Source: a virus. Taken from it: a stretch of 39,573 nucleotides of DNA. The notes below the pieces were generated by a model. That model did not search any database, was not told the origin of the DNA, and saw nothing but the letters and a program-made list of their open reading frames with translations. Made by a program: the position numbers and the translations under genes. Below, piece after piece: positions 73 through 24,584 of the stretch. The stretch lies in IMG/VR virus record IMGVR_UViG_3300033075_000869; one strand, given 5' to 3'. The first letter of the stretch is position 1; the number at the start of each line of letters is the position of its first letter.

Positions 73-175
73 CCCGACATGGCTATCAATCCAATTTTGG
101 TCATATTTGTATATATCTTACGTCAATTGCTTCGAAGTGTTCAATTCTCCCAAAAGGGTATATGATATTGTTATT

Positions 176-652
176 ATGGGCAAGAAAAATAACAAGGATC
201 GTAAAAAGACGATATCATGTGGATGTCTCGTTTATCGACATCCCACCGCCGAATGGAATGATACACAAGTGCTACTCGTAAAACAATTCGAGCACAAAGA
301 AAATTGGGGCGTTCCTAAGGGACATATTGATCGTGGTGAGACCTACGAGCAATGTGCAATGCGAGAAACTCGTGAAGAAACTGGAATCGAAGTTGAACTA
401 GGACTACGACTACCGGATGCTCGAGCAGTCTACAAAAAGGAAGACAAAACTGTTATAACGTATCTTGCTGTTCAAAGTTGCAATAACACGTTGAACTCTG
501 GTCATCCTGATTCTGAAGTGTTTGCTGCTGAATGGTTTAGTGTTGTTGAGTTGCCACAAATTCATTCATACCAACAGGAACTTGTTCGAAATGGTCTAGA
601 CGTTATTAGACTTCAATTTGAGGCTGCTAAGAAATGTTCGACGACAGAATAG
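176..652 (+). CDS. Nudix hydrolase
   Basis: Nudix box GHIDRGETYEQCAMRETREETGIE (Gx5Ex7REUxEExGU). Start taken at internal ATG 176 (MGKKNN...); the track ORF begins at 107. Confidence 0.75.
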   Translation: MGKKNNKDRKKTISCGCLVYRHPTAEWNDTQVLLVKQFEHKENWGVPKGHIDRGETYEQCAMRETREETGIEVELGLRLPDARAVYKKEDKTVITYLAVQSCNNTLNSGHPDSEVFAAEWFSVVELPQIHSYQQELVRNGLDVIRLQFEAAKKCSTTE

Positions 653-888
653 AAGACGCAATTCAAGCAGTGTTCAAATATGCCGGTCATGTTGATTCTT
701 GGATTGTTATCAAGAAAGAGCTTCTGAAACAACTATCGCATAATGACCGTACGGCATTTTCAACGCGACATCCTATTACGAAAAAACAACAAACAAATGA
801 CTTTGAAAGAACAATTGCTCAACGTTGGGAAGAATTGTCTGGGCGGAAGGTACTATTTAGTTCTGATGAAATCAGTTCAGGATCATAA
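634..888 (+). CDS. hypothetical small protein (84 aa)
   Basis: Protein-like ORF filling the gap between the Nudix gene and the next gene. No recognisable motif. Confidence 0.35.
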   Translation: MFDDRIEDAIQAVFKYAGHVDSWIVIKKELLKQLSHNDRTAFSTRHPITKKQQTNDFERTIAQRWEELSGRKVLFSSDEISSGS

Positions 889-1915
889 AGTACTACGTGA
901 ATACGTTAAGCAAATTTTGCGTGAAGATGATTACGGTGGCATGATGATGGCTGCTGGTGATATGAATCCGTACGGTGTTCATATTGCATCAAACGACGCA
1001 CTATACAAAACTTTCATTAAGCCATTTGTTGATGTTGTTGATGTTGCTGCGGGCAAAACAAAAGAGCTGAGTCAAAAAGCACAAACGCTTGGGAAAATTG
1101 CATTCGAAACAATCGGATCAACAATTTTCCCGTGGTTGTCATCTGACTATGCAGAAATCTTTCAAGAAGAAAAATCTCAGATCGACAAGATTAAATCGCA
1201 ATACGCTGAAGTGTATCAAGCGACTTGGGACGCATTCCAAACAAATGACGTTGCTTGGACAGCATTCTTTTGTTATCCTGGTGCTGTGTTTGCGTCGTCG
1301 CTTGCTCGCAAAACGCCACTTGTAACTCTAAAAATGTTGAGTGTGTTTTCTGGTGGGACTATGGACAGTTTCTTGTCTCGGGCACAACAGAAATTTTCAA
1401 CTGACGGCAAAAAGAGCACTAACAATAGTGACAGCATTGATAAATTGCCGTCACCTACTTGGGAATCTGTGTTGCGCGAAGACGATGAGAAAAAACATCA
1501 ACCCAAGAAAAAGATAACATTGGCTGATGTTCTCACCAATGAAAAAGTTATTAAGAAAGCTCTTAGTTCTCCAACTGCACAACGTATACAAAAAGAAACA
1601 CGAGAAGTTGTTCGTGGAACATTGCAGTCTGTGTTTGAACATGCACAAGCAGTTATGTCATCAAAATCTTTTGAAGAGCTTCAGAAGAAAATTGGCAAAC
1701 CCCTCAAGGGACTAGAAAAGCTAAAGGGTATGCAGCCTGAGGCACGTCAAGCAGCCGAAGCACAAGTTTTGACTACACTCAAGAAGTCAATGACTGCTTT
1801 TTACGTAAAGAACCTAGAAGCACAGGTGAAACAAGCACTTGATGCCGGGATTCCACAAAACAGTGGTTACGTTAAAGATTATGCAGCTGTGATCCAGAAG
1901 ATTAAAAGCCTCTAA
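866..1915 (+). CDS. hypothetical helical protein (350 aa) with N-terminal MKSVQDHKVLREYVKQILRE motif
   Basis: Long ORF. Start chosen at ATG 866 (verified), which puts the shared LREYV..ILRE motif at the N-terminus. The track ORF starts at 743. Confidence 0.55.
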   Translation: MKSVQDHKVLREYVKQILREDDYGGMMMAAGDMNPYGVHIASNDALYKTFIKPFVDVVDVAAGKTKELSQKAQTLGKIAFETIGSTIFPWLSSDYAEIFQEEKSQIDKIKSQYAEVYQATWDAFQTNDVAWTAFFCYPGAVFASSLARKTPLVTLKMLSVFSGGTMDSFLSRAQQKFSTDGKKSTNNSDSIDKLPSPTWESVLREDDEKKHQPKKKITLADVLTNEKVIKKALSSPTAQRIQKETREVVRGTLQSVFEHAQAVMSSKSFEELQKKIGKPLKGLEKLKGMQPEARQAAEAQVLTTLKKSMTAFYVKNLEAQVKQALDAGIPQNSGYVKDYAAVIQKIKSL

Positions 1916-3037: not shown

Positions 3038-3452
3038 TCAAGTTTTCCCAAAACAAACAGATCAAATTTATCCGACATATTCTAAGATCAAGTACCAAAT
3101 TGATCAATTGGAATGTTTTCCAACGTGGGAAGAATTTCTAGAATATGAATGTGTTAGATGTTCTGGTAAATTTAATATGTTTGAACGAAACAATATTCAA
3201 CGTTATGCATATGACGTTGGCCTATATAGTCTCGTGAACTGGCTTCAACGGTGTAAAGAGCTCGGGCATTCATATACAAAAATGTATGATCCAGCATTGA
3301 AACATTATTCCAGACTTCATGGCCCACGTGAAGGGTGGATAACATCGGATCTAAAGAAAAAGTTGTTTGTTCGTGAACTTGAAGCACAACGCTCTGAACT
3401 TGAGCTAAAGCTACAAGCTATTCAAGACAAACTTGAAGAAGTTAAACCATGA
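3030..3452 (+). CDS. hypothetical protein
   Basis: ORF of 140 aa. Its stop overlaps the next start (ATGA). Confidence 0.5.
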   Translation: MTSQVFPKQTDQIYPTYSKIKYQIDQLECFPTWEEFLEYECVRCSGKFNMFERNNIQRYAYDVGLYSLVNWLQRCKELGHSYTKMYDPALKHYSRLHGPREGWITSDLKKKLFVRELEAQRSELELKLQAIQDKLEEVKP

Positions 3453-3712
3453 AATATGGTTCTTTTACGCCTCGACCTGGCGATCTATTCACATGGCATT
3501 ATAACGATAACGACAAACAGTGTGTGGCAGATTTGTGGATTATTGGCGGTTACGTTCCGTCTGTAGAGGTAAATTTGCTCATTGCCTTGACTGATCGATT
3601 TATTTGGTGGGTTCAAAATGGCAGCTTTTTGTTCAGGGTTATCGATCAGCCAGCGCAAACAAGTGCAGAACCTTATTTGAGAAAAATTCATCCACGAATT
3701 CAGGTTGTGTAA
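3449..3712 (+). CDS. family A small paralog (MKxGxFTPRPGDLFTWHY...IHPR)
   Basis: One of 5 paralogs sharing N-terminal FTP(K/R)PGDLFxWHYDxDD and C-terminal F(I/L)xxRxD...HPR. The paralogs differ at synonymous sites, which indicates purifying selection. Confidence 0.6.
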   Translation: MKYGSFTPRPGDLFTWHYNDNDKQCVADLWIIGGYVPSVEVNLLIALTDRFIWWVQNGSFLFRVIDQPAQTSAEPYLRKIHPRIQVV

Positions 3713-3743: not shown

Positions 3744-4304
3744 ATGGACTTGGCTGAGGCACAGAATATTGGCGATAGAATCGTTGATTCATTGTTGAAT
3801 TGTACAGCTCGAGCAGTCGTTGCCGGGTCTGTTCGACGGTGTAAACCCACCGTCAAAGACATTGAAATCGTCGTTATTGTTACTGATTACGATAAGTTGT
3901 TTACGCAGCTGCGGCAACACGGTCGATTTATTAAGCCGGGTGTTCCACAAGTCATTGACTGGCCACCCAAGAAAAATTCGAAATATATTCGAATGTACCT
4001 CAATGAGGGAATTAAGCTTGATTTGTTTGTGGGCTCGAGTGATAACTGGGGAGCCCTCCTGTGTATGCGAACAGGTAGTGGCGTTGGTCCTGATGGGAAT
4101 GTTCACCATGGATTCATACCTGCGATGTTTCGCCGCTGGAAGCGAGTTTCTGGCGGTGGGAAGATGTCCGGTTGCATGCCAACCATGCCCGACGGACTTC
4201 AACTAAACGTTCCTGAAGAACGTGATTATTTTGACTTGTTGGGTGTTCAGTGGGTTGAACCAAACAAGCGAATTTCTAGCTCGGACGTGAAAGGAATCTC
4301 ATGA
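3744..4304 (+). CDS. minimal DNA polymerase X-family nucleotidyltransferase (ASFV PolX-like size)
   Basis: GSVRR...DIEIVVIV (Pol beta NT motif GS..R...D.D), LDLFV, and overall layout like 174-aa minimal PolX. Confidence 0.65.
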   Translation: MDLAEAQNIGDRIVDSLLNCTARAVVAGSVRRCKPTVKDIEIVVIVTDYDKLFTQLRQHGRFIKPGVPQVIDWPPKKNSKYIRMYLNEGIKLDLFVGSSDNWGALLCMRTGSGVGPDGNVHHGFIPAMFRRWKRVSGGGKMSGCMPTMPDGLQLNVPEERDYFDLLGVQWVEPNKRISSSDVKGIS

Positions 4305-4621
4305 AAACGATTTATTATCTTTCAGATTACAATTGGCAGCGTGGCGAAATTGTGGGTGGTGGGAAAAAGAATCATAAGATCCGTGATCATTACGGAAATG
4401 AATTTTACGTGTCGAAAGACAAATGTGCAGTTGAAGGCGAATCTGTTTGCGTTGTTTGGGAAATGTGGCGTGGTGTAAATGGTCGTGGCGGATATCGAGT
4501 TGAAAGGGTTCTTTACCCAGAACATCGTGTTCCGGCAGAAAAAGTGTATCGTCAGTCAAGTGGCGATGGTCGAGTTAATGAAAATGCAAATCCATTTAAC
4601 GGGAATGGTACTCCCAAATGA
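4301..4621 (+). CDS. hypothetical protein
   Basis: ORF of 106 aa, with ATGA overlap to the previous gene. Confidence 0.45.
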   Translation: MKTIYYLSDYNWQRGEIVGGGKKNHKIRDHYGNEFYVSKDKCAVEGESVCVVWEMWRGVNGRGGYRVERVLYPEHRVPAEKVYRQSSGDGRVNENANPFNGNGTPK

Positions 4622-4917
4622 ACTCAAAACGTGTTTGGGAGTTTGATGACGCTGTTTCTCTTATTCGTGAGATTGAACCTCATTTCCAAAACATTGGACT
4701 ACATGTTGGTTTTACAGGGTCTGTTCTACGACAAGGATTTTCGTCGAAAGACATGTCTTCTCGCGTACTTGAATTGCTAACGTCATTGGGGTGGAAACGA
4801 ATTCGAAATCGACAGGAAATGCTCCAGTGTTGGAGATCATTGTCCAATGAAGAAGTAAAGTGGGTTGAAGTTTACAGTTTCAAACATCGTCGAATTGACG
4901 TTATGTTTCTACAATAA
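4618..4917 (+). CDS. hypothetical protein
   Basis: ORF of 99 aa. Confidence 0.45.
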   Translation: MNSKRVWEFDDAVSLIREIEPHFQNIGLHVGFTGSVLRQGFSSKDMSSRVLELLTSLGWKRIRNRQEMLQCWRSLSNEEVKWVEVYSFKHRRIDVMFLQ

Positions 4918-5190
4918 ATGAAAACGGGTCCTTTTACACCAAAACCGGGTGATTTGTTCAGTTGGTATTATGACACAGATGATACGCCATGTCATAGTTA
5001 TGATCAACTATTCTCAATGTCTATGCGTCTCTGGGTACCTTGTGCAGGCGTTAATACGCTTATTTCATTGACTAATAGCAATATATTTTGGTTGAATGAT
5101 ACGCATATTTTTAATGCACGTATTGATAATACGTCACCATGGCCGAATACGAAGCAAGGTCGTTCGATTTATCCGCGAAAACTAACATGA
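4918..5190 (+). CDS. family A small paralog
   Basis: MKTGPFTPKPGDLFSWYYDTDD...IFNARID...SIYPRKLT. Confidence 0.6.
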   Translation: MKTGPFTPKPGDLFSWYYDTDDTPCHSYDQLFSMSMRLWVPCAGVNTLISLTNSNIFWLNDTHIFNARIDNTSPWPNTKQGRSIYPRKLT

Positions 5191-5579
5191 AAACAAATCC
5201 GAATAACTGGGGGTCTACAAGCGTCGTAAATTACAACTGGTTTCACACTGATGTTGATCATGCTGACATTGAAAAATATGTTCGTTCACCTGAAGAAGAT
5301 GCTGCGCTACAATTCTTGTCACGTGATATTCATTTCGTTATGAGACCATGTCTAGAGAAGTTTAAGAAGTTCTTTGGACGTCAGACATATACATGGGTTG
5401 GTTCAGATTGTAGGTTTTGGGTTTGGGAATTTGACGAACAGATTCGTGTATTTGTTAATTCCCATAAAGGTATTTGTGTTGAACTACGACATGACCTGCA
5501 ACCAAAAGCTGCATATGCAGCAATGATCAAATTTGTAAAGGAAATCAAGGAAAACCAAGAAAGTGAGCTATATGCTTGA
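5187..5579 (+). CDS. hypothetical protein
   Basis: ATG at 5187 overlaps the previous stop (ATGA). The track ORF starts at 5139. Confidence 0.45.
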   Translation: MKTNPNNWGSTSVVNYNWFHTDVDHADIEKYVRSPEEDAALQFLSRDIHFVMRPCLEKFKKFFGRQTYTWVGSDCRFWVWEFDEQIRVFVNSHKGICVELRHDLQPKAAYAAMIKFVKEIKENQESELYA

Positions 5580-5844
5580 AAAGATTGATGAAATTATTTT
5601 GCGTGCTTTTGTTCTATTTGCGCTTATTACGTGTATCGTCATTGGATACAAAATAACATTTGCAAATGGACAAATTGAGTATTGTTATGTTGTTTCGCAC
5701 GTTGATTCTGGAGGTCAAATACATGTTCTTTATGGTAGTCGAGATTGGAGACCTGATCATACCATCATGCGAGAAACAGTTTATCCGACTCGTTTGACTG
5801 AATATGCAAAGGAAATCGGATGTCCACTGAAGTTAACGATGTGA
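5563..5844 (+). CDS. small membrane protein (1 TM)
   Basis: Hydrophobic segment AFVLFALITCIVIGY. Confidence 0.4.
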   Translation: MSYMLEKIDEIILRAFVLFALITCIVIGYKITFANGQIEYCYVVSHVDSGGQIHVLYGSRDWRPDHTIMRETVYPTRLTEYAKEIGCPLKLTM

Positions 5845-6050
5845 TCGATCTGAACAATCGAGCTCAAATTATTCTTGAAGCAATTGATGAAGAAATCACT
5901 GAGTGGTTTCTAACACCGGGTAATAAGAAAATGTTGCACTTGCATCTGGGAATGTCGCCTCAAGACTATACAACGTTTCTATTTACGCCGAAAAAGTGGG
6001 CAATTGATTACGTGAAGAAGCTTCACGGAGATGAACTTAAGCAGCCTTAA
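5820..6050 (+). CDS. hypothetical protein
   Basis: ORF of 76 aa. Confidence 0.4.
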   Translation: MSTEVNDVIDLNNRAQIILEAIDEEITEWFLTPGNKKMLHLHLGMSPQDYTTFLFTPKKWAIDYVKKLHGDELKQP

Positions 6051-6300
6051 ATTCAATCCCTTTCATCACGTAAAAATCTCTGATGAGTTCGATTGCTTCA
6101 TCCCAATTGTCTTCATCAAGTGCTGCGTCCATTGCGTTGTTCAACATCTTGGGCGGAACTTTCATTTTTTCTGCTGCCCATTTTAGCAGTTTAATAAACG
6201 CTGCACGCTGATCACTTGTTTTTGGTTTTCGTAGTGGAACCGGTGCTTCTGTGAGCATTAGCAGTTCAATGTATTCACGCAACAATTGCAAACGTTTCAT
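6037..6300 (-). CDS. hypothetical small helical protein, lone minus-strand gene inside a plus block; N-term MKRLQLLREYIELL
   Basis: ATG verified at 6298-6300. It fills an otherwise empty 300-bp gap. The N-terminus resembles the shared LREY(I/V) motif. Confidence 0.4.
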   Translation of the reverse strand: MKRLQLLREYIELLMLTEAPVPLRKPKTSDQRAAFIKLLKWAAEKMKVPPKMLNNAMDAALDEDNWDEAIELIRDFYVMKGIEFKAA

Positions 6301-6350
6301 GCTATTACATATGTGTGTAAAGCAAAAATAACCTGTGTTATAGTGTTAAT

Positions 6351-7382
6351 ATGAACAAAGTCATTGAATCTTGGAAGTGGCCTTCCATTGAAAGTTTTTA
6401 CAACGTTCGTAAAACGATTCAAAAATATGGCGTCGCCGCTGGATCGATTGTTACGTATCGTGCAAAGGTGAAATTGCATGGTGCATGCGCTGCTTTTTCA
6501 ATTGATGGCGATAGTGCCCGTGGTGCTACGCTTCAAACGTATTCTCGAACAGCGATTGTTACACCCGAGAGTGATCCCATGGGATTTTCTAGGTGGATCG
6601 AAAATCGTCGTGATCAATTGTTGTCGTTGCATCAACCTGGAACGAGTATCATTGTATACGGCGAGTGGACCGGTCAAGGTATTCAAAAGGGTGTTGCTGC
6701 GAGTCAAGTCGAACGTTTCTTCGCTGTTTTCGCTGCTCGAGTGTCTCGAGTGGAAGACCCAATGAGTGAGGAATTCATTACTGATCCGGATGAACTTAGG
6801 GTCTACGTTCAGGGTGTTCCGGGTTGTTATGTGTTGCCTTGGTTCAATGACGGTGAAGAATTTGTTGTTCCATGGGAGGCAGATTCTGATTCTTTTGAGA
6901 ATGTTATTTCGAGAATGAACTCTCACGTTGCCGCAATTGAGGCATGTGATCCGTTCGTGTCGAAAACTTTTGGTGTTGCAGGTATCGGCGAAGGTCTCGT
7001 ATTTTATCCAGTGTCAGAACAACATTGTTCATTTGGCGATTTTTCTTATCTCTGCTTCAAGGCAAAGGGTGAGAAACACAAAACGATTGTTCATGCTGCA
7101 CCGGTCCAGGCTGAGCCGACAGTCATTGAAGGTCTTGATGAATTTGTTCGCAATGTGTTGCCGTTGTCTAGGCTCGAACAAGGTGTTCGGGCAACAAACG
7201 ACGGGTCTGACATTGCAATGATGGTCAATTTGGGACCGTTCTTGAAATGGATTGGTCTCGATCTAGAAAAGGAAACCGTGGAAGAGCTACGTGTCTCTGG
7301 TCTTGATCGCAAAGTGGTCTTCAAGAAGTGCAATGAATATGCTCGCAATTGGTTCATGAACGAATCGAGGAAACTGTTATGA
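6351..7382 (+). CDS. RNA ligase, Rnl2 family
   Basis: Motif I KLHG (T4 Rnl2 KIHGTN) and motif IV YGEWTGQGIQKGV (Rnl2 FGEFAGPGIQKNV). Confidence 0.75.
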   Translation: MNKVIESWKWPSIESFYNVRKTIQKYGVAAGSIVTYRAKVKLHGACAAFSIDGDSARGATLQTYSRTAIVTPESDPMGFSRWIENRRDQLLSLHQPGTSIIVYGEWTGQGIQKGVAASQVERFFAVFAARVSRVEDPMSEEFITDPDELRVYVQGVPGCYVLPWFNDGEEFVVPWEADSDSFENVISRMNSHVAAIEACDPFVSKTFGVAGIGEGLVFYPVSEQHCSFGDFSYLCFKAKGEKHKTIVHAAPVQAEPTVIEGLDEFVRNVLPLSRLEQGVRATNDGSDIAMMVNLGPFLKWIGLDLEKETVEELRVSGLDRKVVFKKCNEYARNWFMNESRKLL

Positions 7383-7443
7383 AACTTTCTACTTACAACT
7401 GAAATACAGTAGCAGAGGGATATTTCGCTTCATCCACGAAAAT

Positions 7444-7683
7444 ATGTCAATAGAACGTAAATACGAATCAATCATAGCCGACCTAACGCATCAGCTATAT
7501 CGTGCTCGACTTATTTCGCGTGGTTGGAAGAAACTAGCGAAACTTGAGCGAGCAACAATCGTCCAAGCAGCGGTTGAATCTGCTGCTGGTGATTGGGATG
7601 ATGATGGTCAAAGAGATCGCGTTATTCAACATCATCTTGAGAAGTTTTCAAGCATTAGAGAAACATTGCGAAATCCGAAATGA
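7444..7683 (+). CDS. hypothetical protein
   Basis: ORF of 79 aa. Its upstream intergenic region carries a copy of the CTTCATCCACG motif. Confidence 0.45.
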   Translation: MSIERKYESIIADLTHQLYRARLISRGWKKLAKLERATIVQAAVESAAGDWDDDGQRDRVIQHHLEKFSSIRETLRNPK

Positions 7684-7967
7684 AGACCGGTCCTTTCACC
7701 CCGAAACCTGGCGAACTATTCCAATGGCACTATGACATAGACGATAGTATATGTCAACCTGATGATAAACTGTGGGCAAAGTCTCCTTATCGTTGGATCC
7801 CGTGCGTCGACAACAGCAATTTGCTCGTTGCTCTAACCGCTACGGATATTTGGTGGGTGAATAGTCAAGGTTTTATTCATACATACGTTGATTGCTTGCA
7901 ATATCGCGGCGGGCGCGATCAAGCCGCCACAGAAAATGTCTATCATCCACGCATAGTTGAAATATGA
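7680..7967 (+). CDS. family A small paralog
   Basis: MKTGPFTPKPGELFQWHYDIDD...FIHTYVD...YHPRIVEI. Contains a GC-rich insertion-like segment (GGCGG...CCGCC) near the C-terminus. Confidence 0.6.
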   Translation: MKTGPFTPKPGELFQWHYDIDDSICQPDDKLWAKSPYRWIPCVDNSNLLVALTATDIWWVNSQGFIHTYVDCLQYRGGRDQAATENVYHPRIVEI

Positions 7968-8314
7968 AAAAAGGTCTGTATACACCACGTCCTGGAGATC
8001 TGTTCAATTGGCATTATGATCATGATGATTCAAAATGTAAAGATGACGATAAAGTTTGGTCGTCGTCTATGAAATGTTGGGTACTATGCAACGGTATTAA
8101 CATTCTAATCTCACTAACCGAAACTGATATGTGGTGGATTAATAATCAGAGCTTCATCCACGCGCGCGTGGATAAAATTCCGTCGGCCGCCTGGGTAGGC
8201 GTTCCTCGGCGCTGCTTCATCCACGCGCGCGTGGATAAAATGTTTACACCGACTAGTACTCATATCGCCGAGCCTGGCGAGCGAGCTTTGTCTACGCATA
8301 ATGAAATAACATGA
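7964..8314 (+). CDS. family A small paralog with internal 60-bp tandem duplication and aberrant C-terminus (possibly decaying)
   Basis: FIHARVDK is encoded twice by duplicated palindromic DNA. The C-terminus lacks the family's HPR motif. Confidence 0.45.
   Translation: MKKGLYTPRPGDLFNWHYDHDDSKCKDDDKVWSSSMKCWVLCNGINILISLTETDMWWINNQSFIHARVDKIPSAAWVGVPRRCFIHARVDKMFTPTSTHIAEPGERALSTHNEIT
8153..8238. repeat. Tandem direct repeat of TTCATCCACGCGCGCGTGGATAAAAT (2 copies, 34-bp GC-rich spacer), each holding a perfect 18-bp palindrome ATCCACGCGCGCGTGGAT
   Basis: Exact 26-mer at 8153-8178 and 8213-8238. The palindrome is perfect. The segment is locally GC-rich in an AT-rich genome. Confidence 0.7.
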
Positions 8315-9090
8315 CAACCAAAAATCTATTGACTCGCATGAAAGGCTATGAAGAAGCATCAAGGATGATTCTTCCTGGTCGTTCACCTGTTATTCTCCGT
8401 CTCGACGGAAAGTCGTTCTCAACGTATACTCGTTCCCTGGGAACTTTTAATCACTCATTCGCATGGTTGATGAAAGAAACAGCGGTTGCTGTGTGTAAGC
8501 ATATCCAGGGCGCAACGTTCGCTTACACCCAATCTGACGAAATATCAATTTTGATTCACTCTTATAAGAAGCTGAATTCTGAACCGTGGTTTGAAAACTG
8601 TGTTCAGAAGATGGTTTCTGTTTCGTCTTCAATTGCTGCAGTTACATTTACGTTGGGATCACCACAACTTTTTAAGGATGTGTTGGCCGAACCTCGGGCC
8701 GAGGATGCCCGCCCGGCATATTTTGATGCCCGTGTATTTGTCGTTCCAGAAAATGACGTTGTGAATTATTTCGTCTGGCGTCAACAAGATGCAACACGAA
8801 ATGCAATGTCTATGTGGGCTCGTTCACTTTTCTCAGCGAAAGAGATTCATGGGAAAAACTGGCAACAGATGCGTGAGATGTGTGAAACCCGTGGTGTTAA
8901 GTGGGACGCTCTTTCTCCTCAATTTACACGTGGAACCGGAATATCACGCGTCGATGGTCATTGGACAATCGACGATGAAACGCCACTGTTTACTACGAAC
9001 AGGGACTACATCGCTCGGCATCTCGAACTAGAAGAAGGCTTACGTGAAGCTGTATTACGGCCCACGAGATGGCCCACGTATTACCCGTGA
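8311..9090 (+). CDS. Thg1-like protein (tRNA-His guanylyltransferase family, 3'-5' nucleotidyltransferase)
   Basis: RLDGKSFSTYTR and AYTQSDEISIL motifs typical of the Thg1/TLP palm domain; about 260 aa. Confidence 0.7.
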   Translation: MTTKNLLTRMKGYEEASRMILPGRSPVILRLDGKSFSTYTRSLGTFNHSFAWLMKETAVAVCKHIQGATFAYTQSDEISILIHSYKKLNSEPWFENCVQKMVSVSSSIAAVTFTLGSPQLFKDVLAEPRAEDARPAYFDARVFVVPENDVVNYFVWRQQDATRNAMSMWARSLFSAKEIHGKNWQQMREMCETRGVKWDALSPQFTRGTGISRVDGHWTIDDETPLFTTNRDYIARHLELEEGLREAVLRPTRWPTYYP

Positions 9091-9109
9091 TTAATGATGG
9101 TGGTTATAT

Positions 9110-9133
9110 ACCAACTATCATGTTGGTGTTTTT
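9110..9133 (+). terminator. Terminator-like hairpin ACCAAC-tatcat-GTTGGT followed by GTTTTT
   Basis: 6-bp stem, 6-nt loop, T-run. Sits just after the Thg1-like stop. Confidence 0.35.
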
Positions 9134-9135
9134 GT

Positions 9136-9154
9136 GTTTACACTGTGTGTAAAC
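9136..9154. promoter_or_regulatory. Inverted repeat GTTTACAC-tgt-GTGTAAAC upstream of gene 9183
   Basis: Perfect 8-bp arms with a 3-nt spacer in the intergenic region. Candidate operator. Confidence 0.3.
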
Positions 9155-9641: not shown

Positions 9642-9808
9642 TTTTTCTATGGTTCGTGACAATCGTGGTAATTGATATTATTGCGTTTCAAAATGAACCG
9701 TGGTCATTGATTGCAGCTTTTATTTGCGACGTTGTCGTTTTGTTCATGTGGTTTTATCATCCCGAAGAGAAAAAATTACATTATGAATCGTCATGTTCTA
9801 ATCATTGA
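9587..9808 (+). CDS. small 2-TM membrane protein
   Basis: Two hydrophobic helices (LIFLWFVTIVVIDIIAF and LIAAFICDVVVLFMWF). Confidence 0.35.
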   Translation: MFKYKFVRSILSGRAMGLIFLWFVTIVVIDIIAFQNEPWSLIAAFICDVVVLFMWFYHPEEKKLHYESSCSNH

Positions 9809-10661
9809 TGGTATGAATTTCTTGCATCGGGCTCGTAGTGGATTTGCTATGGGCCCTGCACCTGTTGTATACAATTTCATGCGAAACTTCCGTGCAATTG
9901 TTGAACAGTTCGCGCCTGATTACATTTATTTCGTTCTTGAGGGTCATCCTCAGCAACGAATTGATGCCCTTCCACAATACAAAGCGAATCGGCAGGTTGA
10001 AGCAGACAGTGCAGCACATGAAGAACAGAAGAAGTTTTTCAAGCAAGTTGATCATATCATCGAACTTCTTGGTGTATCGTTTCCTGTTAGAGTTGTTCGT
10101 CATCCTGAACTAGAGTGTGATGATGTAATTTATGACCTGGTAAGTGATCCGACCTGGATTATTGACGACAGTTATCCAGATCCATATGAACTAAAGTATA
10201 CTGTCGTATCTAACGATTCAGATTTTACGCAATTGCTTTGCGAGTTTGACAATGTTTCTGTGTATAATCCTATGTTGAAGAAATATGTTGAGAAGCCGGA
10301 TTACGATTACGTAACGTGGAAAGCTCTACGTGGTGACGGGTCTGACAACATCCCTGGAATCCCTGGTATTGGTGACGTGACTGCAACGAAAGCGATGGAT
10401 GATCCTGAATTGTTGCGAGAAATTCTGTCTCGTAATGGTGCTGCAGAGATTTTTCAACGTAATGTAAATCTGATCAAATTTATCACGATCAAAGACACTG
10501 AAAAAGGCAAGGTTGAACACCTGGGTGTAATGTGGAATACCCACAAAAGTTGGGAACCACTACGACAAGCGTTTGAAAAATATGGATTTCAGTCGCTACT
10601 GAAGCCTGAAGCTTGGCAGAAATATATTGGAACGTTTCATCATCAATTGCACGTTGCGTAA
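9783..10661 (+). CDS. 5'-3' exonuclease / flap endonuclease (T5 exo / T4 RNase H type)
   Basis: N-terminal LIIDGMNFLHRA (compare LLVDGNNLAYR) and acidic clusters. ATG 9783 verified; the track ORF starts at 9711. Confidence 0.7.
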   Translation: MNRHVLIIDGMNFLHRARSGFAMGPAPVVYNFMRNFRAIVEQFAPDYIYFVLEGHPQQRIDALPQYKANRQVEADSAAHEEQKKFFKQVDHIIELLGVSFPVRVVRHPELECDDVIYDLVSDPTWIIDDSYPDPYELKYTVVSNDSDFTQLLCEFDNVSVYNPMLKKYVEKPDYDYVTWKALRGDGSDNIPGIPGIGDVTATKAMDDPELLREILSRNGAAEIFQRNVNLIKFITIKDTEKGKVEHLGVMWNTHKSWEPLRQAFEKYGFQSLLKPEAWQKYIGTFHHQLHVA

Positions 10662-10667: not shown

Positions 10668-10922
10668 ATGAAAACCGGTCTATTTACTCCGCGACCGGGA
10701 GATTTGTTCACTTGGCATCATGATTCAGACGATGGTTTGTGTCGTCGTGGTGAAAAGATTTGGTCTTCATCTAAGAATGATTGGGTGTCATGTGTTGGCA
10801 TCAATATTCTAATCTCACTAACTGAAACTGATGTGTGGTGGATTGATAAAATTAATCTTATTCACTCGCGATATGGTGAAATTGATATCAATCATCTTCA
10901 TCCACGTACGAATAAAACTTGA
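10668..10922 (+). CDS. family A small paralog
   Basis: MKTGLFTPRPGDLFTWHHDSDD...LIHSRYGEID...HLHPRTNKT. Confidence 0.6.
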   Translation: MKTGLFTPRPGDLFTWHHDSDDGLCRRGEKIWSSSKNDWVSCVGINILISLTETDVWWIDKINLIHSRYGEIDINHLHPRTNKT

Positions 10923-14033: not shown

Positions 14034-14269
14034 AAACACGTCTCAAATTTCATGTATTTCCGGGTGATATTCCTAAACGTAACAAAATTGCGATGATGGA
14101 AAATCAGGATGCTGAACTTGCTATTGAAACATACGGTGGATTGAAAACACAGAAGAAGCGTCGTAAATCATATAAACGAATGATTCTGAGTAAAGAACGC
14201 GCAGTGTTGAAACGTCGAGAACAAAATGAAATCAAAAATTCGACATCTTCTGAAGAATTACGTTACTGA
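14030..14269 (+). CDS. small basic protein
   Basis: K/R-rich 79-aa ORF (KKRRKSYKRMILSKERAVLKRREQ). Confidence 0.4.
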   Translation: MKTRLKFHVFPGDIPKRNKIAMMENQDAELAIETYGGLKTQKKRRKSYKRMILSKERAVLKRREQNEIKNSTSSEELRY

Positions 14270-14759
14270 AATTGTCAAAGGAACCGAAGGTCATACAACG
14301 GGTCTGCTTCAAGGTTCAGTATCGACGTCAGTATATGCAGGTAATGTGCTGCGTGATGAAGAAGAAAATGAAAAGAAACTAAAGCGAGCTGTATGTCTGC
14401 TGGTTAAACATCCATCATTGCCAAATATATACCTTGCTGTTTCCCGCAAAGATGATCCCAACGATATGGGCCTTCCTGGTGGGAAAGTAGACGATACTGA
14501 TGTGTCTCTTGAAGACGCTGCTGCAAGAGAACTTCAAGAAGAAACTGGCTTGATAGCAACACATATTTCAAGTCCTATTTTTGTTCGATCGGCTGATGGT
14601 GAATATACTTGCACCACATTTGCAGCAACAGTTGCTGGGAATATTGAAACAGAAGAATCTGGCGTTGTTCGTTGGGTATCACCTGAAGAACTTGTTGCGG
14701 GTTGTTTTGGTGAATATAATAAGTTGATGTTTAAGAAATTGGGAATCAAATATGAATAA
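14226..14759 (+). CDS. Nudix hydrolase with N-terminal MKSKIRHLLKNYVTEIVKGTE motif
   Basis: Nudix box GGKVDDTDVSLEDAAARELQEETGL, nearly identical to MutT GGKIEMGETPEQAVVRELQEEVGI. Confidence 0.75.
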   Translation: MKSKIRHLLKNYVTEIVKGTEGHTTGLLQGSVSTSVYAGNVLRDEEENEKKLKRAVCLLVKHPSLPNIYLAVSRKDDPNDMGLPGGKVDDTDVSLEDAAARELQEETGLIATHISSPIFVRSADGEYTCTTFAATVAGNIETEESGVVRWVSPEELVAGCFGEYNKLMFKKLGIKYE

Positions 14760-15889: not shown

Positions 15890-15991
15890 TGACGTAACCT
15901 CTTATTAATAAGCTATAAGGTGCGATAATGAAAATTGTATATGTCATGCATTATGTTCATAATCACATTTGAATACATGTGTTAACATCTG

Positions 15992-16003
15992 TGCAACGTT
16001 GCA
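15992..16003. promoter_or_regulatory. Perfect 12-bp palindrome TGCAACGTTGCA in the 145-bp divergent intergenic region
   Basis: Located between the divergent protease gene (-) and gene 16035 (+). The region is AT-rich with TTGCAA/TATAGT-like hexamers. Confidence 0.35.
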
Positions 16004-16034
16004 ATAAATGTGTATATAGTTAAGTTACAGTAAC

Positions 16035-16418
16035 ATGAAATATACAGCAAATGGCGTCAAAGAGAGTGTTGACGCAAATCGTGAGCACCTAATGGGTGCA
16101 TGGGCTCTCGGAAGACCTGAAAATTGGAGTTGTAATCAACAGACGAAAGATCTGATTTGCATAGGAAACTGGCTTGACGAAGAAATGCGACGACTTTGGC
16201 TCGATGATCTTGGTCGAGTTATGCAAACGCAGCAGTTTAACAGGCGATCACGTTCAGAACATGATTTGTGGGAATTGGCTGCATTTATTATGAATGAAGT
16301 TATCGATAACAAAATTGATCGACAACGTAAACCATTGCGTCGATGGGGATTAAATGACACCAGAATTTGTGTGGCCGCAGGTGAAATGTTCGCGTTGCGG
16401 ACACAATCATTGTCTTGA
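16035..16418 (+). CDS. hypothetical protein
   Basis: ORF of 127 aa. Confidence 0.5.
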   Translation: MKYTANGVKESVDANREHLMGAWALGRPENWSCNQQTKDLICIGNWLDEEMRRLWLDDLGRVMQTQQFNRRSRSEHDLWELAAFIMNEVIDNKIDRQRKPLRRWGLNDTRICVAAGEMFALRTQSLS

Positions 16419-16674
16419 GGTTGAACAGATTAAGCCTCAACATCCAGAAGCTATTGAAGCCGCAAGAGTGATATTTGAAAAACGTTGGGCAAACGTTGAA
16501 GAAATTCGAGAAACACATCCCGAATGGCTTGAGATTGAGTTGACACGAGCAGATCGTGCTACAGATGCACTTGTTGCTGCAACCCAAGATTACAATCGTT
16601 GGGTATTTCCAAACACAGTGACAACGTCAAAAACTGCCGCCGGTTACGTGATTCACTGTATTGATTGTCCATGA
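16354..16674 (+). CDS. zinc-ribbon protein (CxxC...CxxC)
   Basis: CSRCGHNHC ... HCIDCP. Confidence 0.45.
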   Translation: MTPEFVWPQVKCSRCGHNHCLEVEQIKPQHPEAIEAARVIFEKRWANVEEIRETHPEWLEIELTRADRATDALVAATQDYNRWVFPNTVTTSKTAAGYVIHCIDCP

Positions 16675-16699
16675 TGATGGAAATTAGGTTTATTGAAAC

Positions 16700-16996
16700 A
16701 TGATCCAACACGATCTAGTTCCAGGAACGTTGTGTTGCGTTATAACCGACGGAATGAGTTTGTTTCTGAAACCTGTTCATGGGATGGCCAAAACTGGCAA
16801 GTTGAAAGAAGGTGATATTTTCATGATATTGTCTCAAATATCTCAAATTGACAATGTTATCTTGGGTGAAACAGTTTACCTTGTAATATCCAACACCAAT
16901 TTGATAGGATGGACTTTGTGGCGAGGTAGTCATTACATGAAATCTTCAGACATTCAATGGTTATTGCTCCTGGAACGTTGTGTTATGCTACTCTAA
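16700..16996 (+). CDS. PGT-motif small paralog (LVPGTLCCV...IGWTLWRG)
   Basis: Tandem paralog of the next gene; PGTL motif shared with 23793-24005 and 37874-38155. Confidence 0.5.
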   Translation: MIQHDLVPGTLCCVITDGMSLFLKPVHGMAKTGKLKEGDIFMILSQISQIDNVILGETVYLVISNTNLIGWTLWRGSHYMKSSDIQWLLLLERCVMLL

Positions 16997-17226
16997 TTGA
17001 ATTTACTGGATCTAATCCACGTGTTCCTCTGTACAGATATTCTGAAGGAGATCCATCTGGAGGACCAGAACATGATTTCTATTTGTACATGAATACAACT
17101 TTCATGATTGTTTCGGCAGTAAATACAACCCATCGTGAATCACACGTAGATTACTTTGTAATAACTGAAGGTGGTGGTATGGGTTGGACAATGTGGTATC
17201 CTAAAAATTTCAAGATTATCAAATGA
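16957..17226 (+). CDS. PGT-motif small paralog (IAPGTLCYA...MGWTMWYPK)
   Basis: Paralogous to 16700-16996. Confidence 0.5.
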   Translation: MVIAPGTLCYATLIEFTGSNPRVPLYRYSEGDPSGGPEHDFYLYMNTTFMIVSAVNTTHRESHVDYFVITEGGGMGWTMWYPKNFKIIK

Positions 17227-18179
17227 AACATCCAAATCCAAATATGTTGTTGCACATTGCCATGGGCGATGCATATGCTACTGCAGTCGAATATGTTAAG
17301 CGAGAAAAACACGCTCAACTGTATGATGCTGCACTGCGATTTCAAACATATCTACAACACCCTACGCACCTAAAACTCAAACCGGGTATGTATACCGATG
17401 ACACACAGCAAAGTATTGCTGTCGTAGAAGTTTTGTTGGGAACACAAGCACCACGTGTTCCAGATTTTCTAAATGCATTTTACGACGTATTCAAACGTGA
17501 CCCTCGTGATGGATATGCTCGTGGATTTCAAGGTCTAATTGAATCTGTTGAATCACGTGATGAATTTCGTTCGAGGATCATTCCAAACTCTAATAAAAAT
17601 GGCGCAGCAATGCGCTCTGTCCCAATTGGCGTCATTAAAGACGTAAATCAACTTGTCGATATCGCTGGGGTTCAAGCCACTGCTACCCATGCAACATGGG
17701 GTGGAATCAACAGTGCAGTCGCTGTTGCTCTTATGTCGCATTTTGCGCTATATGATCATCGTAATTTTCTATACATGAGAGAATGGTGTGCACGATATTC
17801 GTCTGCATTTCAGTTTTTTGGGTCACCATGGTCTGGTCCGGTCGTTAGTGACCCAAAAAATCCCAAAGACATGGGTGTTGGTATGAATACTGCATGGGCT
17901 GTTTGCACATTGCTCGAACAAGAAACATCATTGATGGGAATAATGCGGCGCGTAATTGAATGGGGCGGTGATACTGATTCTGTTGCAGCAATCGCGTGGG
18001 GAATAGCGGGAGCTCGTTACGGTCATGAAATTCTACCAAGCTTCCTAGAACACGATCTTGAACCAGGTTCTCGATATGGCGTTCAATTTCTAAAAGACCT
18101 AGGTGAACGCTTGATGACGGTTGAAAAATTGTCTTATGTAAAACACCCATTATTTGTGGTAAAGTTACTTATACTCTAA
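17223..18179 (+). CDS. ADP-ribosylglycohydrolase (ARH/DraG family)
   Basis: N-terminal GDAYATAVE, TDDTQQS and C-terminal GGDTDSVAAIAWGIAGARYG signature motifs. Confidence 0.8.
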   Translation: MKHPNPNMLLHIAMGDAYATAVEYVKREKHAQLYDAALRFQTYLQHPTHLKLKPGMYTDDTQQSIAVVEVLLGTQAPRVPDFLNAFYDVFKRDPRDGYARGFQGLIESVESRDEFRSRIIPNSNKNGAAMRSVPIGVIKDVNQLVDIAGVQATATHATWGGINSAVAVALMSHFALYDHRNFLYMREWCARYSSAFQFFGSPWSGPVVSDPKNPKDMGVGMNTAWAVCTLLEQETSLMGIMRRVIEWGGDTDSVAAIAWGIAGARYGHEILPSFLEHDLEPGSRYGVQFLKDLGERLMTVEKLSYVKHPLFVVKLLIL

Positions 18180-18197
18180 CGTAGTGCCAATAAAACA

Positions 18198-19526
18198 ATG
18201 AAAAAACGACGTTACAAAAGTGCGAAGATTAAGTCGGTACCGGGCGCAATTGAAATTGAAAAGTCCTTCCTGACACAGGTCAAAGAGTTGATGAACCTGG
18301 GCCAAGTTAAGAAAACAATTCATGTCGGAACCGAATTGTTTGGTGCTATTTCACCGTTTCTTGACAAACCTGACTGGTGGAACGGTTGTAAAGCCGCGTT
18401 TGCAGTTGGTAAAGTTTTGATTGACGAAGTTGAAATTTGGTCAGATGATTATTTCTCTGGCGAAGAGTGGAGTATGCCATATTCGCGAGATTTTAATCAA
18501 ACGATTCTTTCAGCTATTTCTGGTTACCCGTTTCAAGTTGTTCGAACGAGTGACGAAAATAGTATGATCAAACTTGTTGACCTTGAAGGCATCAAAGTTG
18601 GTTATACTGTTAATACACGCTCTTCGCATATTGACAATATTTTTGTTGAAACTGCAAAGCTAAAAGAGGCGCGCGATCACATCAAAAAGTTGCTTTGGGA
18701 ATCCTTGAAAGATTCAAATATTGTGATGCGTCAAAATAAGCGTATGCTTCTTCAAGAAGAAGAGTCTCGTGTTATTTTTGAATCAGATGATGCATTTCAT
18801 CCGCTAAAGTCTGCTCGAGCAACAGATTATTCTTCTTACTTGAAACGTTGCATTGACGCAAACGTCTCTAGGTCTGTGATGTTGTATGGTCCTCCCGGAA
18901 CTGGTAAGTCGACGATGGCACGAACGATCGTCGACACTTTGAATATGCGTTCGTTCAGAATTCGTGTTGAGGACGTTGCTGGAATCGAAAGTTCGACGCT
19001 TTTTGAAGCTGTTAGCATCTTTGAGCCAGACGCAATCATCTTGGATGATTTTGACCGGGCACATGCGCAGGCCCAATTGCTCGAAACGCTTGAGTTTTTC
19101 CAGCGTCATGTTAAGATTGTTATTGCAACAGTCAATGATCGAAATAGTTTGGATGAAGCTATTCTACGACCTGGTCGATTTGACGAGCTTGTGTTTGTCA
19201 AGCAAATGGACGAAGACGTTGTCAAGCACGTCCTTGGGCCTGCGCTTGAAGATGCATTTGACATTGTCAAAGATTGGCCAATTGCATTCATTCAGGAATA
19301 CGCAAAGAGGCGACGTTTCATGAGCGCTGAAGAGGCGGCGGTTTCTACAGCCGAACTAGCTGATCGAGTTAAGCGTCTTCAAAAATACGATGACTTGTCC
19401 GATGTTGAGCGAATGCTAGCTGCTAGGAAACGTCTTGGTATTGCTACAGAAGACAACGTTGACGACCTAGATGATTCTGACCCAGACCTTGAAGATGGTG
19501 AAACCCCTTTTGTAGAGCCGGCATAA
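18198..19526 (+). CDS. AAA ATPase (classic clade), with a possible -1 frameshift extension to 19750
   Basis: Walker A GPPGTGKST, Walker B IILDDFD and the second region of homology ILRPGRFDELVFV. Confidence 0.85.
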   Translation: MKKRRYKSAKIKSVPGAIEIEKSFLTQVKELMNLGQVKKTIHVGTELFGAISPFLDKPDWWNGCKAAFAVGKVLIDEVEIWSDDYFSGEEWSMPYSRDFNQTILSAISGYPFQVVRTSDENSMIKLVDLEGIKVGYTVNTRSSHIDNIFVETAKLKEARDHIKKLLWESLKDSNIVMRQNKRMLLQEEESRVIFESDDAFHPLKSARATDYSSYLKRCIDANVSRSVMLYGPPGTGKSTMARTIVDTLNMRSFRIRVEDVAGIESSTLFEAVSIFEPDAIILDDFDRAHAQAQLLETLEFFQRHVKIVIATVNDRNSLDEAILRPGRFDELVFVKQMDEDVVKHVLGPALEDAFDIVKDWPIAFIQEYAKRRRFMSAEEAAVSTAELADRVKRLQKYDDLSDVERMLAARKRLGIATEDNVDDLDDSDPDLEDGETPFVEPA

Positions 19527-19746: not shown

Positions 19747-20682
19747 ATGATTGGTGTTTGTTGTCAGTGGCTTGAGCGTATTAAACGTCCAAGATCTGGT
19801 GATTATCAATATGTGAACGTTGTCGATGAACGTTCACTTCAACTTGGTAGGTACATAGCAGGAAAATATACACCTGAGCAAATTAGTGCTACGTACTTGC
19901 ATAACATCAATAATTTGATACGTATGTTGCCACGAATTTCACGTTCTGGCATACGTTTGTTTCGAATATCTTCTTCGTTGTTTCCCCTCGCTGACAAAGT
20001 TGATCGTGCGCATTGGGATAATGATGCTGTTCGAACACAATTGAAATGTGTTGGTGATATTATTAAGTCACTTCAACTACGTGTTACAACGCATCCTGGC
20101 CAATTTTGTGTTTTGTCGTCAGATTCTGATCGCGTAGTTGAAAATTCATTCAATGAATTGGCGCTTCATGGTTGGATATTTGACGTTATGGGTCTTGATC
20201 GTTCACCACAATATGCTATCAATATTCACGGTGGTAAGTCAGACAGGTCGTCTAGGCTTATTGAACAGATCAAATCTTTGCCACAGTCTGTTTCGTCACG
20301 ATTGACACTTGAAAATGACGAGTCTGCATATTCACTTATTGATTTGTTGACTGTACACAAAGAAACCGGTGTTCCTGTCGTTTGGGATTCGCATCATCAT
20401 ACATTCAATGATGACGGAATTTCTCTTAGCGATGCCTATACATTGTCAAGGCTAACGTGGCCATCTGGCGTTATGCCACTGCAACATATTAGCAATACCG
20501 AGCCGAGTTCAAGTGATGGTTCATTTACAGAACGTCGTAAACACAGTAATATGATTCATTATATTCCGGATGCTCAACTTCAAGGTCTGCGTGATGGCAA
20601 CGTTGCGTGTGAAATTGAGGCAAAAATGAAAAATATCGCTGTTGACCATATGGTTAATATCTTTGGTCTGACACGATTATAA
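19747..20682 (+). CDS. uvdE: UV damage endonuclease (UvdE)
   Basis: TTHPGQFCVLSS, INIHGG, RLTLENDE and VVWDSHHH match the UvdE TIM-barrel signature. Confidence 0.75.
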   Translation: MIGVCCQWLERIKRPRSGDYQYVNVVDERSLQLGRYIAGKYTPEQISATYLHNINNLIRMLPRISRSGIRLFRISSSLFPLADKVDRAHWDNDAVRTQLKCVGDIIKSLQLRVTTHPGQFCVLSSDSDRVVENSFNELALHGWIFDVMGLDRSPQYAINIHGGKSDRSSRLIEQIKSLPQSVSSRLTLENDESAYSLIDLLTVHKETGVPVVWDSHHHTFNDDGISLSDAYTLSRLTWPSGVMPLQHISNTEPSSSDGSFTERRKHSNMIHYIPDAQLQGLRDGNVACEIEAKMKNIAVDHMVNIFGLTRL

Positions 20683-23067: not shown

Positions 23068-23310
23068 ATGAACGTCAATCATTTGATTGGTGAGTTTGTA
23101 ATCATAACGGGAGAATCTTGTACAGGATTGATTATAGCTGCTTCTCAATCAAATACAAATCCGCTTAACAATTGTCAAATTGACAACAGTTATCCTCTCG
23201 TATATTATGTTCTAATTTCTGATGGCCTTATAAAGGGTCCGTTGTTCTCATCAGAAATTAGAACATTGTGTTTATTCTATTCGTTCAAGTTGATTAATGT
23301 GAACTCGTAG
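23068..23310 (+). CDS. hypothetical protein
   Basis: ORF of 80 aa. Its end overlaps the convergent minus-strand gene. Confidence 0.3.
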   Translation: MNVNHLIGEFVIITGESCTGLIIAASQSNTNPLNNCQIDNSYPLVYYVLISDGLIKGPLFSSEIRTLCLFYSFKLINVNS

Positions 23311-23529: not shown

Positions 23530-23535
23530 TCACCC

Positions 23536-24473: not shown

Positions 24474-24584
24474 AAAATGACTACGCTTATCATAGATATG
24501 GTACCCAATGTTGTCCTGTCAGGCTGCCATGGGAGCCCACTCGAGACATTGGAATAAAACACTTGATAATAACCATATGTTTCC

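Follow-up and report, generated by a model that had tools for sequence, protein, structure and literature searches.

Sealing of nuclease-damaged tRNA by phage-encoded enzymes is known from T4, with its Pnkp and Rnl1 pair. For T4 Rnl2 we know of no established biological role, and Rnl2-type ligases favour nicks in duplex RNA over single-stranded loops. On the DNA side, Pol X of African swine fever virus (ASFV) is the known minimal family X polymerase (PolX), and the virus pairs it with an apurinic/apyrimidinic (AP) endonuclease and a ligase. Jumbo phages were surveyed by Iyer, Anantharaman, Krishnan, Burroughs and Aravind (2021, Viruses 13:63, PMC7824862), and that survey lists among RNA-repair genes Rnl1, Rnl2 and RtcB ligases, 2H and HAD phosphoesterases, polynucleotide kinase (PNK), RlaP and CCA nucleotidyltransferases, with Thg1 sporadic in group 2/3 jumbo phages and Nudix treated as a processor of ADP-ribose. 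Bacterial Thg1-like proteins (TLPs) repair 5′-truncated tRNAs in vitro via templated 3′-5′ addition, as described in PMC3701042 and PMC4820378. Here we report on a 39,573-nt stretch of viral DNA, one strand of the IMG/VR record IMGVR_UViG_3300033075_000869 and referred to below as the window, which encodes a minimal PolX, an Rnl2-type RNA ligase, a TLP, a small 2H phosphoesterase and two Nudix hydrolases.

A sequence-only reading of this stretch had taken these six enzymes for one tRNA-repair and RNA-end-healing toolkit. Its gene calls hold, as every enzyme open reading frame (ORF) is present exactly where it had been placed and carries the correct family name (Table 1); PolX, Rnl2, TLP and Nudix matched their families in profile searches and the 2H was confirmed by fold search. 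Since hundreds of homologs were found for each enzyme family examined, the enzyme ORFs are not chance ORF noise. The functional grouping, on the other hand, was partly wrong: Rnl2, TLP and 2H do belong to RNA-end families, but PolX sides with DNA repair, the Nudix enzymes are not assignable, no kinase or phosphatase was matched in the window and linkage of TLP to Rnl2 is rare. What the analysis shows directly are the identities of the genes, their catalytic motifs and folds, and how often they are linked; we favour, with a probability of about 0.6, the reading that these genes are not one tRNA-repair system but parts of a syntenic nucleic-acid-maintenance block of an uncultured huge-phage clade, in which a DNA patch-repair core is joined by optional RNA-end repair genes. 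The concept of phage RNA repair and the single families were already known, and the newest element of the analysis is a minimal PolX family with an unusual D-x-E motif and a conserved flap endonuclease (FEN) partner.

The minimal PolX and its gene neighbourhoods

The PolX of the window consists of palm and thumb only. In Pfam it matched DNA_pol_B_thumb alone, with an E-value of 4e-4 that is under the gathering cut-off. A profile built from 26 sequences aligned the whole protein to the palm and thumb of Thermus PolX (residues 164–321, E 3e-7) and also to Pol lambda, through residue 333, and the AlphaFold model (pLDDT 97) reached a Foldseek TM score of about 0.7 to Pol lambda. Residues G28, S29, R31, R32, D39, E41 and D93 were invariant in the 26 sequences (GS-x-RR ... 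D-x-E ... D), at which the second catalytic carboxylate of the family is Glu and not the canonical Asp. The protein reads MRTGS where Pol beta and Pol lambda have YFTGS, the site of their sugar steric gate, and R109 was invariant across the same alignment. The 8-kDa (deoxyribose-phosphate lyase), fingers/HhH and PHP domains are absent; the protein starts at the palm, and only the minimal ASFV-type architecture fits. We also considered that this ORF might be RlaP or another RNA-specific Pol-beta nucleotidyltransferase, which was ruled out by the palm and thumb profile and fold and by the lack of an RlaP match in Pfam.

Conserved homologs of 185–200 amino acids (aa) numbered 117 (117 protein clusters), and the family was found on 213 IMG/VR stretches. 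Searching 50,697 GenBank phage records by tblastn with this PolX and with one of its distant homologs gave no match.

A tblastn comparison with the window covered the gene neighbourhoods of PolX on five long metagenomic contigs and at 80 IMG/VR loci, and loci with a PolX at least 49% identical to that of the window were taken as its close clade (26 non-redundant loci). The backbone of this clade runs Nudix, an ORF of about 360 aa, PolX, (Rnl2), FEN, lysozyme, papain and Nudix, and continues with (Pyr_excise, HhH-GPD), trypsin, (TLP), ADP-ribosylglycohydrolase (ARH), AAA, UvdE and Cpn60. FEN was found 0.5–7.3 kb downstream of PolX in 18 of the 26 loci, and UvdE directly adjoined PolX in two of them (L080 and L084). 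For a distant group of PolX (28–39% identity, on phage contigs of 20–60 kb), a Pfam scan of the four nearest genes gave DNA methylases, integrases, terminases and proteins of replication (Toprim, DnaA_C and IstB), and no RNA enzymes. Thus PolX tracks DNA metabolism both in the clade, with its FEN and UvdE neighbours, and among distant homologs. Because of this constant FEN partner, the adjoining UvdE and the DNA genes near distant relatives, PolX, as a homolog of family X DNA polymerases, is most likely a DNA gap-filling enzyme and not an RNA enzyme, and its earlier assignment to RNA repair is not supported.

An incision enzyme (UvdE), a flap nuclease (FEN) and a gap-filling-type polymerase (PolX) all lie in the window. 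In the mechanism that we propose, the minimal PolX would fill short DNA gaps and the neighbouring Pol-I-type FEN would take off displaced strands or primers, with incisions made by UvdE and, in relatives, perhaps by Pyr_excise and HhH-GPD glycosylases. PolX and FEN may together be the counterpart of DNA polymerase I, split over two proteins. A DnaE-type replicase was found on at least one related contig of 319 kb, and bacteria without Pol I almost always retain a stand-alone FEN (survey, PMC12926913). The true start of the FEN in the window is likely near 9783, going by the gene call in L001.

The RNA-end enzymes and the Nudix genes

The ligase matched phrog_548 ("RNA ligase", 1e-35), and its motifs I (K41, KLHG), III (E105), IIIa (F127), IV (E214-G215) and V (K237, K239) were invariant in an alignment of 28 sequences. 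Its family profile covers residues 29–327 of the 335 of T4 Rnl2 (E 1.2e-12), including the Rnl2-type C-terminal domain, and found no DNA ligase, Rnl1, Rnl3 or Rnl5 chain at E ≤ 1. A DNA-ligase-like identity, which would have spoken against the Rnl2 assignment of the sequence-only reading, was ruled out by this C-terminal domain and the absence of DNA-ligase matches to the profile, and the Rnl2 assignment is retained. On the NCBIfam equivalog model TIGR02307 the protein reached 20.1 bits, where the cut-off is 197; its subfamily is divergent, and orthology to T4 Rnl2 is therefore not claimed.

The TLP matched Pfam Thg1 (7e-26; 91 bits, with the cut-off at 29.2) and phrog_4717 (2e-69). Its best solved relative was the TLP of Bacillus thuringiensis (BtTLP, 4kgk; E 5e-46, full length), with which its carboxylate motifs LDG and QSDEIS (SDE) align; E-values to human and Candida Thg1 were 5e-7 and 1e-5, respectively. 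By its sequence, the Thg1-like polymerase seen earlier thus belongs to the bacterial clade and not to the eukaryotic, tRNA-His-specific Thg1 clade, and its distance from eukaryotic Thg1 (E ~5e-7) means that it need not have a dedicated tRNA-His G-1 function. Two small paralogs (paralogs 3 and 4 in Table 1) have overlapping stop and start codons, as do the second of these and the TLP gene, so the three are probably co-transcribed. A hairpin with a T-run follows the TLP stop codon and, together with the overlapping codons, suggests that TLP closes a small transcription unit with the two paralogs.

According to the mechanism proposed for these two enzymes, the ligase would close 3′-OH/5′-phosphate nicks in duplex RNA, and TLP would restore tRNA acceptor stems that have lost 5′ nucleotides, through templated 3′-5′ addition after 5′-adenylylation, as PMC4820378 and PMC3701042 describe for TLPs. 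Most plausibly, the two would defend translation against nucleases by protecting tRNAs of the host and/or the phage, as Iyer et al. proposed for jumbo phages.

The 2H phosphoesterase is genuine, with the 2H fold and two HxT motifs at H60 (HITV) and H130 (HTTI) that were invariant in 14 homologs. In the fold search LigT/CPDase and the phage anti-CBASS (cyclic-oligonucleotide-based anti-phage signalling system) protein Acb1 matched equally well, a sequence-profile search of the family against PDB gave no match, and the best Pfam match, the RNA-repair "Swiss-army-knife" family (2H-SAK), was below the cut-off. The gene lies 28 kb from the other repair genes on the opposite strand, and its closest relatives sit near a Major-Vault-Protein (MVP)-like gene (L163, which keeps the 2H ... 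MVP arrangement of the window) or next to DnaE (L162), not near ligases. Its 5′ end is overlapped by 115 nt by a hydrophobic, low-complexity-like ORF of 181 aa (37570–38115, minus strand) with no homologs detected, which is probably spurious.

Both Nudix genes called earlier are confirmed by Pfam (Table 1). The NCBIfam MutT-like, RppH-like and ADP-ribose-type models were all far below their cut-offs for them, and PHROGs gave generic MutT/Nudix matches only. The first Nudix gene and the ORF that follows it (about 350–390 aa) are a conserved pair across the clade (L075–L105); the window copy of this second ORF had no match in Pfam, PHROGs, NCBIfam or PDB sequences. The distant 2H and the two Nudix enzymes are not attributable to either the DNA or the RNA group.

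Weighing the reading against its rivals

Several points weigh against a DNA patch-repair core with optional RNA-end genes. The unusual D-x-E and the loss of the 8-kDa and fingers domains mean that the substrate of this PolX could differ from that of canonical PolX. The Pfam scan, which covered about 78 window ORFs of about 40 aa and longer, matched no DNA-ligase family, so that a DNA pathway would have only the Rnl2-type ligase beside it there. In all clade members that have it, Rnl2 is placed either between PolX and FEN or a short way upstream of PolX, and it could thus be a gene of the DNA group. Synteny within one clade is in part shared ancestry and not independent functional evidence. Finally, we infer every substrate from homologs, and the counter-defence role of the RNA-end genes likewise.

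It is possible, but rather unlikely, that the RNA genes serve no counter-defence: TLP would mature or proof-repair the 5′ ends of phage tRNAs (e.g. G-1 on tRNA-His, or mismatched acceptor stems), and the 2H would be an Acb1-like degrader of cyclic oligonucleotides, as its fold allows. We examined 73 viral TLP loci (±10 kb), and tRNA genes lay within 10 kb of TLP in 22 of the 54 phage loci scanned for them, compared with one of the 26 loci of the PolX clade, which hints that phage TLPs serve phage-encoded tRNAs. Some of these TLP genes are inside arrays of 7–23 tRNAs, and several are near tRNA-His (L024–L026, L033/L034). However, the tRNA scan, a check bearing on the tRNA-repair claim of the sequence-only reading as well, found no tRNA gene in the 39.6-kb window, and there is none in the equivalent blocks of 25 of the 26 clade relatives. 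As for the 2H, its best, sub-threshold Pfam match is to an RNA-repair family and at one locus (L177) it is the immediate neighbour of Rnl2, both of which speak against an Acb1-like role.

We consider it distinctly unlikely that PolX, Rnl2, TLP, 2H and the two Nudix enzymes are an integrated tRNA-repair/RNA-end-healing toolkit against host anticodon nucleases that replaces the T4 Pnkp/Rnl1 pair. Rnl2, TLP and 2H are each a genuine family of RNA-end enzymes, Rnl2 and TLP are 0.9 kb apart on the same strand, and the concept has already been published for jumbo phages. Support also comes from other lineages: among 80 viral Rnl2 loci (±6 kb), TLP was near Rnl2 in four (L165, L166, L188 and L237, the last two outside the clade of the window) and the small 2H in two (L177, as the next gene, and L205). 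Against it, PolX goes with FEN and UvdE and not with RNA genes, no Nudix subfamily model comes near its cut-off, and the 2H is far off on the other strand and unlinked to RNA ligases in its closest relatives. TLP and Rnl2 were moreover gained or lost independently within the clade: a window-type Rnl2 is present in 4 of the 26 loci (5 if L079, which has a different PF09414 protein instead, is counted) and TLP in 3, in shifting position. Elsewhere they are rarely linked. An Rnl2-family gene was near TLP in 2 of the 73 TLP loci, one being the closest relative (L002) and the other a weak case (L050), and no window-type PolX or 2H was near TLP in any of the 73. In isolated phages, TLP occurs mostly in those of Bacillus, Prevotella, Caulobacter and Mycobacterium and the Rnl2 type mostly in those of Klebsiella, Vibrio and Salmonella, with scant overlap. 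The locus L079 carries, at 15990–18466, an MnmA-like tRNA 2-thiouridylase and an RtcB RNA ligase 6–7 kb downstream of its PolX and of its different PF09414 ligase; the clade therefore holds further genes of RNA repair and RNA modification, beyond those in the window.

The toolkit would also lack its healing enzymes here. Among the scanned window ORFs there was no Pfam match to 5′-kinase/PNK, HAD 3′-phosphatase, Metallophos or HD, nor to RlaP, CCA-adding enzyme, RtcB, Tpt1/KptA, Macro or PTH2, and no RNA was found in the window by Rfam at the gathering threshold. The sole extra Pfam match of note was to initiation factor 1 (IF-1), and a PHROGs scan of the small ORFs returned one unnamed family. 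Since kinase/phosphatase, RlaP, CCA enzyme, tRNA gene and Rfam RNA all went unmatched, the window does not demonstrate a complete healing-and-sealing pathway. Kinase/phosphatase genes may lie outside it, and because the window probably covers little of a much larger genome, it gives no ground for saying that Rnl2/TLP/2H chemistry is used instead of the T4 Pnkp/Rnl1 pair.

Equally improbable, in our view, is that Rnl2 is the sealing enzyme of a PolX/FEN module for ribonucleotide-patch DNA repair or lagging-strand maturation, in which PolX would put ribonucleotides into a DNA gap, FEN would trim the flap and Rnl2 would seal the 3′-ribo/5′-phosphate nick. Parallels are bacterial LigD POL with its ligase, and Pol mu with Lig4. 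The order PolX ... Rnl2 ... FEN is shared by the window, L077, L082 and L094 (in L094 all three are within about 2 kb), and a fifth lineage, L081, shows the variant order Rnl2, 109-aa ORF, PolX, homing endonuclease, FEN. The lack of a detected DNA ligase in the window would agree with this, as would the M-R at the Y-F steric-gate position of PolX with its invariant R109. T4 Rnl2 is moreover said, after work by Nandakumar and Shuman in 2004, to require ribose solely on the 3′-OH side of the nick. Yet about 80% of the clade members that keep PolX and FEN are without Rnl2, which is odd for the ligase of an essential pathway; sugar selectivity is not readable from sequence, and a DNA ligase may lie elsewhere in the genome. 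Outside the clade, the ligase family has RNA-repair partners and not PolX: PolX was near Rnl2 in 2 of the 80 loci and FEN in 7, and the four nearest genes included HD_4 (4), AAA_33 kinase (2), HAD_PNKP (1), TROVE/Ro60-vWA (2) and Metallophos (2). As such partners adjoin Rnl2 homologs outside the clade, an RNA-repair role of the ligase family is supported. The stronger proposal, that the D-x-E, M-R mini-PolX, FEN and Rnl2 constitute a compact ribonucleotide-patch module for DNA gap repair or Okazaki maturation in huge phages, is very improbable; if true, an RNA ligase would seal DNA strands in these phages, and a physiological role for Rnl2-type ligases would be suggested.

The phage, its other genes and comparison with known systems

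The window has a GC content of about 40% and is coded mostly on the plus strand up to about 23.3 kb, on both strands from 23.3 to 25.8 kb and mostly on the minus strand from 25.9 kb. Megablast of positions 3744–9090 against the GenBank phage records gave no match, and an exact protein look-up aimed at lengthening the source contig yielded only a Logan contig of 30 kb. The gene content is of the huge-phage type, with a Cpn60/TCP1 chaperonin, UvdE, an ADP-ribosylglycohydrolase, an AAA ATPase, papain-like and trypsin-like peptidases and an IF-1 homolog, and homologs of window genes were found on viral contigs of 184–324 kb. The MVP-like gene, at which the local GC content is about 47%, had matches in the phage collection only to LR756500/1/3, which are uncultured-phage records of 462–735 kb, with about 40% identity. 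Because of this gene content, the MVP matches and the size of the related contigs, we conclude that the window comes from the genome of an uncultured huge phage, of which it is probably a small part. A 2023 preprint (bioRxiv 10.1101/2023.11.10.566534) has described MVPs in phages.

Table 1. Positions of the genes and other features discussed in the text, numbered along the window
Feature	Position	Strand	Details
Nudix hydrolase 1	107-652	+	Pfam NUDIX 3.9e-22
ORF paired with Nudix 1	743-1915	+	390 aa
Small paralog 1	3449-3712	+	87 aa; directly upstream of PolX
Minimal PolX	3744-4304	+	186 aa; palm and thumb only
Small paralog 2	4918-5190	+	90 aa
Rnl2-type ATP-dependent RNA ligase	6351-7382	+	343 aa; Pfam RNA_ligase PF09414, 34.6 bits (cut-off 27)
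Small paralog 3	7680-7967	+	just ahead of paralog 4
Small paralog 4	7964-8314	+	just ahead of TLP
TLP, bacterial type	8311-9090	+	259 aa; predicted 3′-5′ nucleotidyl transferase
Terminator-like hairpin and T-run	9108-9139	+	18 nt past the TLP stop codon; consensus scan only
5′-3′ exonuclease/FEN, Pol I N-terminal-domain type	9711-10661	+	Pfam 5_3_exonuc_N 4e-16; NCBIfam
Small paralog 5	10668-10922	+	84 aa; directly downstream of FEN
Nudix hydrolase 2	14226-14759	+	Pfam NUDIX 1.3e-14
ADP-ribosylglycohydrolase, then AAA ATPase	17223-19526	+	
UvdE UV-damage endonuclease	19747-20682	+	Pfam UvdE 5.8e-54
Cpn60/TCP1 chaperonin	21026-22687	+	phrog "chaperonin groEL" 5e-152
IF-1 homolog	25428-25772	+	Pfam eIF-1a 8.5e-23; Lys-rich N-terminal extension
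MVP-like gene	32914-35520	-	868 aa; MVP_shoulder 1.5e-30, Vault repeats, Band_7
Small 2H phosphoesterase	37190-37684	-	164 aa; homologs about 130 aa

The small paralogs mentioned in the sequence-only reading are indeed interspersed among the enzyme genes, and there are five of them, of 84–116 aa and 36–62% identity (all-vs-all blastp and alignment), flanking PolX, TLP and FEN. They share the conserved N-terminus MKTGxFTPRPGDLFxWHYD and had no match in Pfam or PHROGs; a profile of the family found 165 representatives among 1.84 billion proteins, none of them annotated, and among the relatives compared the paralogs recur only in the closest one, L077. About 20 more small ORFs (70–110 aa), at about 16700–17226, 23272–24863, 29464–31378 and 35596–39527, carry an N-terminal "PGD/PGT + hydrophobic" motif common with the five, and most of the distant matches of the paralog profile likewise begin at this motif. 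Perhaps these ORFs are a large, fast-diverging superfamily of small proteins that extends across much of the window. Within paralog 4, a direct repeat of about 29 nt, CTTCATCCACGCGCGCGTGGATAAAAT, is present in two copies about 65 nt apart (8150–8245, plus strand), each of which holds the palindrome CCACGCGCGCGTGG, and the repeat encodes a duplicated FIHARVDK peptide.

The Cpn60/TCP1 and ADP-ribosylglycohydrolase/AAA genes are kept beside UvdE in the clade backbone. The IF-1 homolog is 54% identical to the E. coli IF-1 sequence. Directly downstream of the MVP-like gene there are two neighbouring paralogs (31411–32121 and 32105–32869, minus strand) with 28% identity over 247 aa.

If active, the RNA-end enzymes would mean that a huge-phage clade holds spare parts that keep tRNAs usable under host nuclease attack. 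Such protection fits the picture of large phages investing in translation, which has already been published for jumbo phages, so this part is an incremental advance. Of more use is that the mini-PolX is now placed in a conserved PolX–FEN DNA-repair pair. Widespread in metagenomic phages and present in none of the GenBank phage records searched, this family could offer a tractable minimal polymerase for biochemistry.

With T4 Pnkp and Rnl1 the window has in common an ATP-dependent RNA ligase and the idea that a phage brings its own enzymes to seal tRNA cut by nucleases, but the ligase is of the Rnl2 type and no polynucleotide kinase/phosphatase was matched in the window. In a healing-and-sealing system the components would be expected in conserved linkage, whereas TLP and Rnl2 were together in 2 of 73 TLP loci and 4 of 80 Rnl2 loci and both are optional and mobile in the clade. 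The clade of the window is outside the set of the jumbo-phage survey (PMC7824862), and the passages searched in that survey do not mention a PolX/FEN pairing beside a ligase.

The closest single counterparts are LigT/RNA 2′,3′-cyclic phosphodiesterase and Acb1, BtTLP, T4 RNA ligase 2 and ASFV Pol X. The 2H of the window has the two HxT motifs and the 2H fold in common with LigT and Acb1; its size is near that of Acb1, only a core of about 130 aa is present and the 2H-SAK match stays below the cut-off. BtTLP (PDB 4kgk) aligns over its full length with the TLP of the window, in which the LDG and SDE catalytic motifs are conserved, whereas the latter is phage-encoded, has a short C-terminal extension and owes its predicted activity to homology. 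T4 RNA ligase 2 (gp24.1; PDB 1s68 and 2hvq) and the ligase of the window are of similar length (334 and 343 aa) and have motifs I, III, IIIa, IV and V and the Rnl2 C-terminal domain in common, but they are very divergent (single-sequence E-value 2e-3), with motif I being KIHGTN in the former and KLHGAC in the latter.

The phage PolX is near in size to ASFV Pol X (186 aa compared with 174–178 residues in the "Repair DNA polymerase X" chains of PDB), with negligible sequence similarity to it (E ~0.45). It has in common with ASFV Pol X, Pol lambda and Thermus PolX the palm and thumb, GS-x-RR, the three carboxylates and "TGS". What sets the phage enzyme apart is its invariant D-x-E, the "MR" in place of "YF" and the absence of 8-kDa lyase, fingers and PHP domains, and it keeps the company of repair genes, namely FEN and UvdE.

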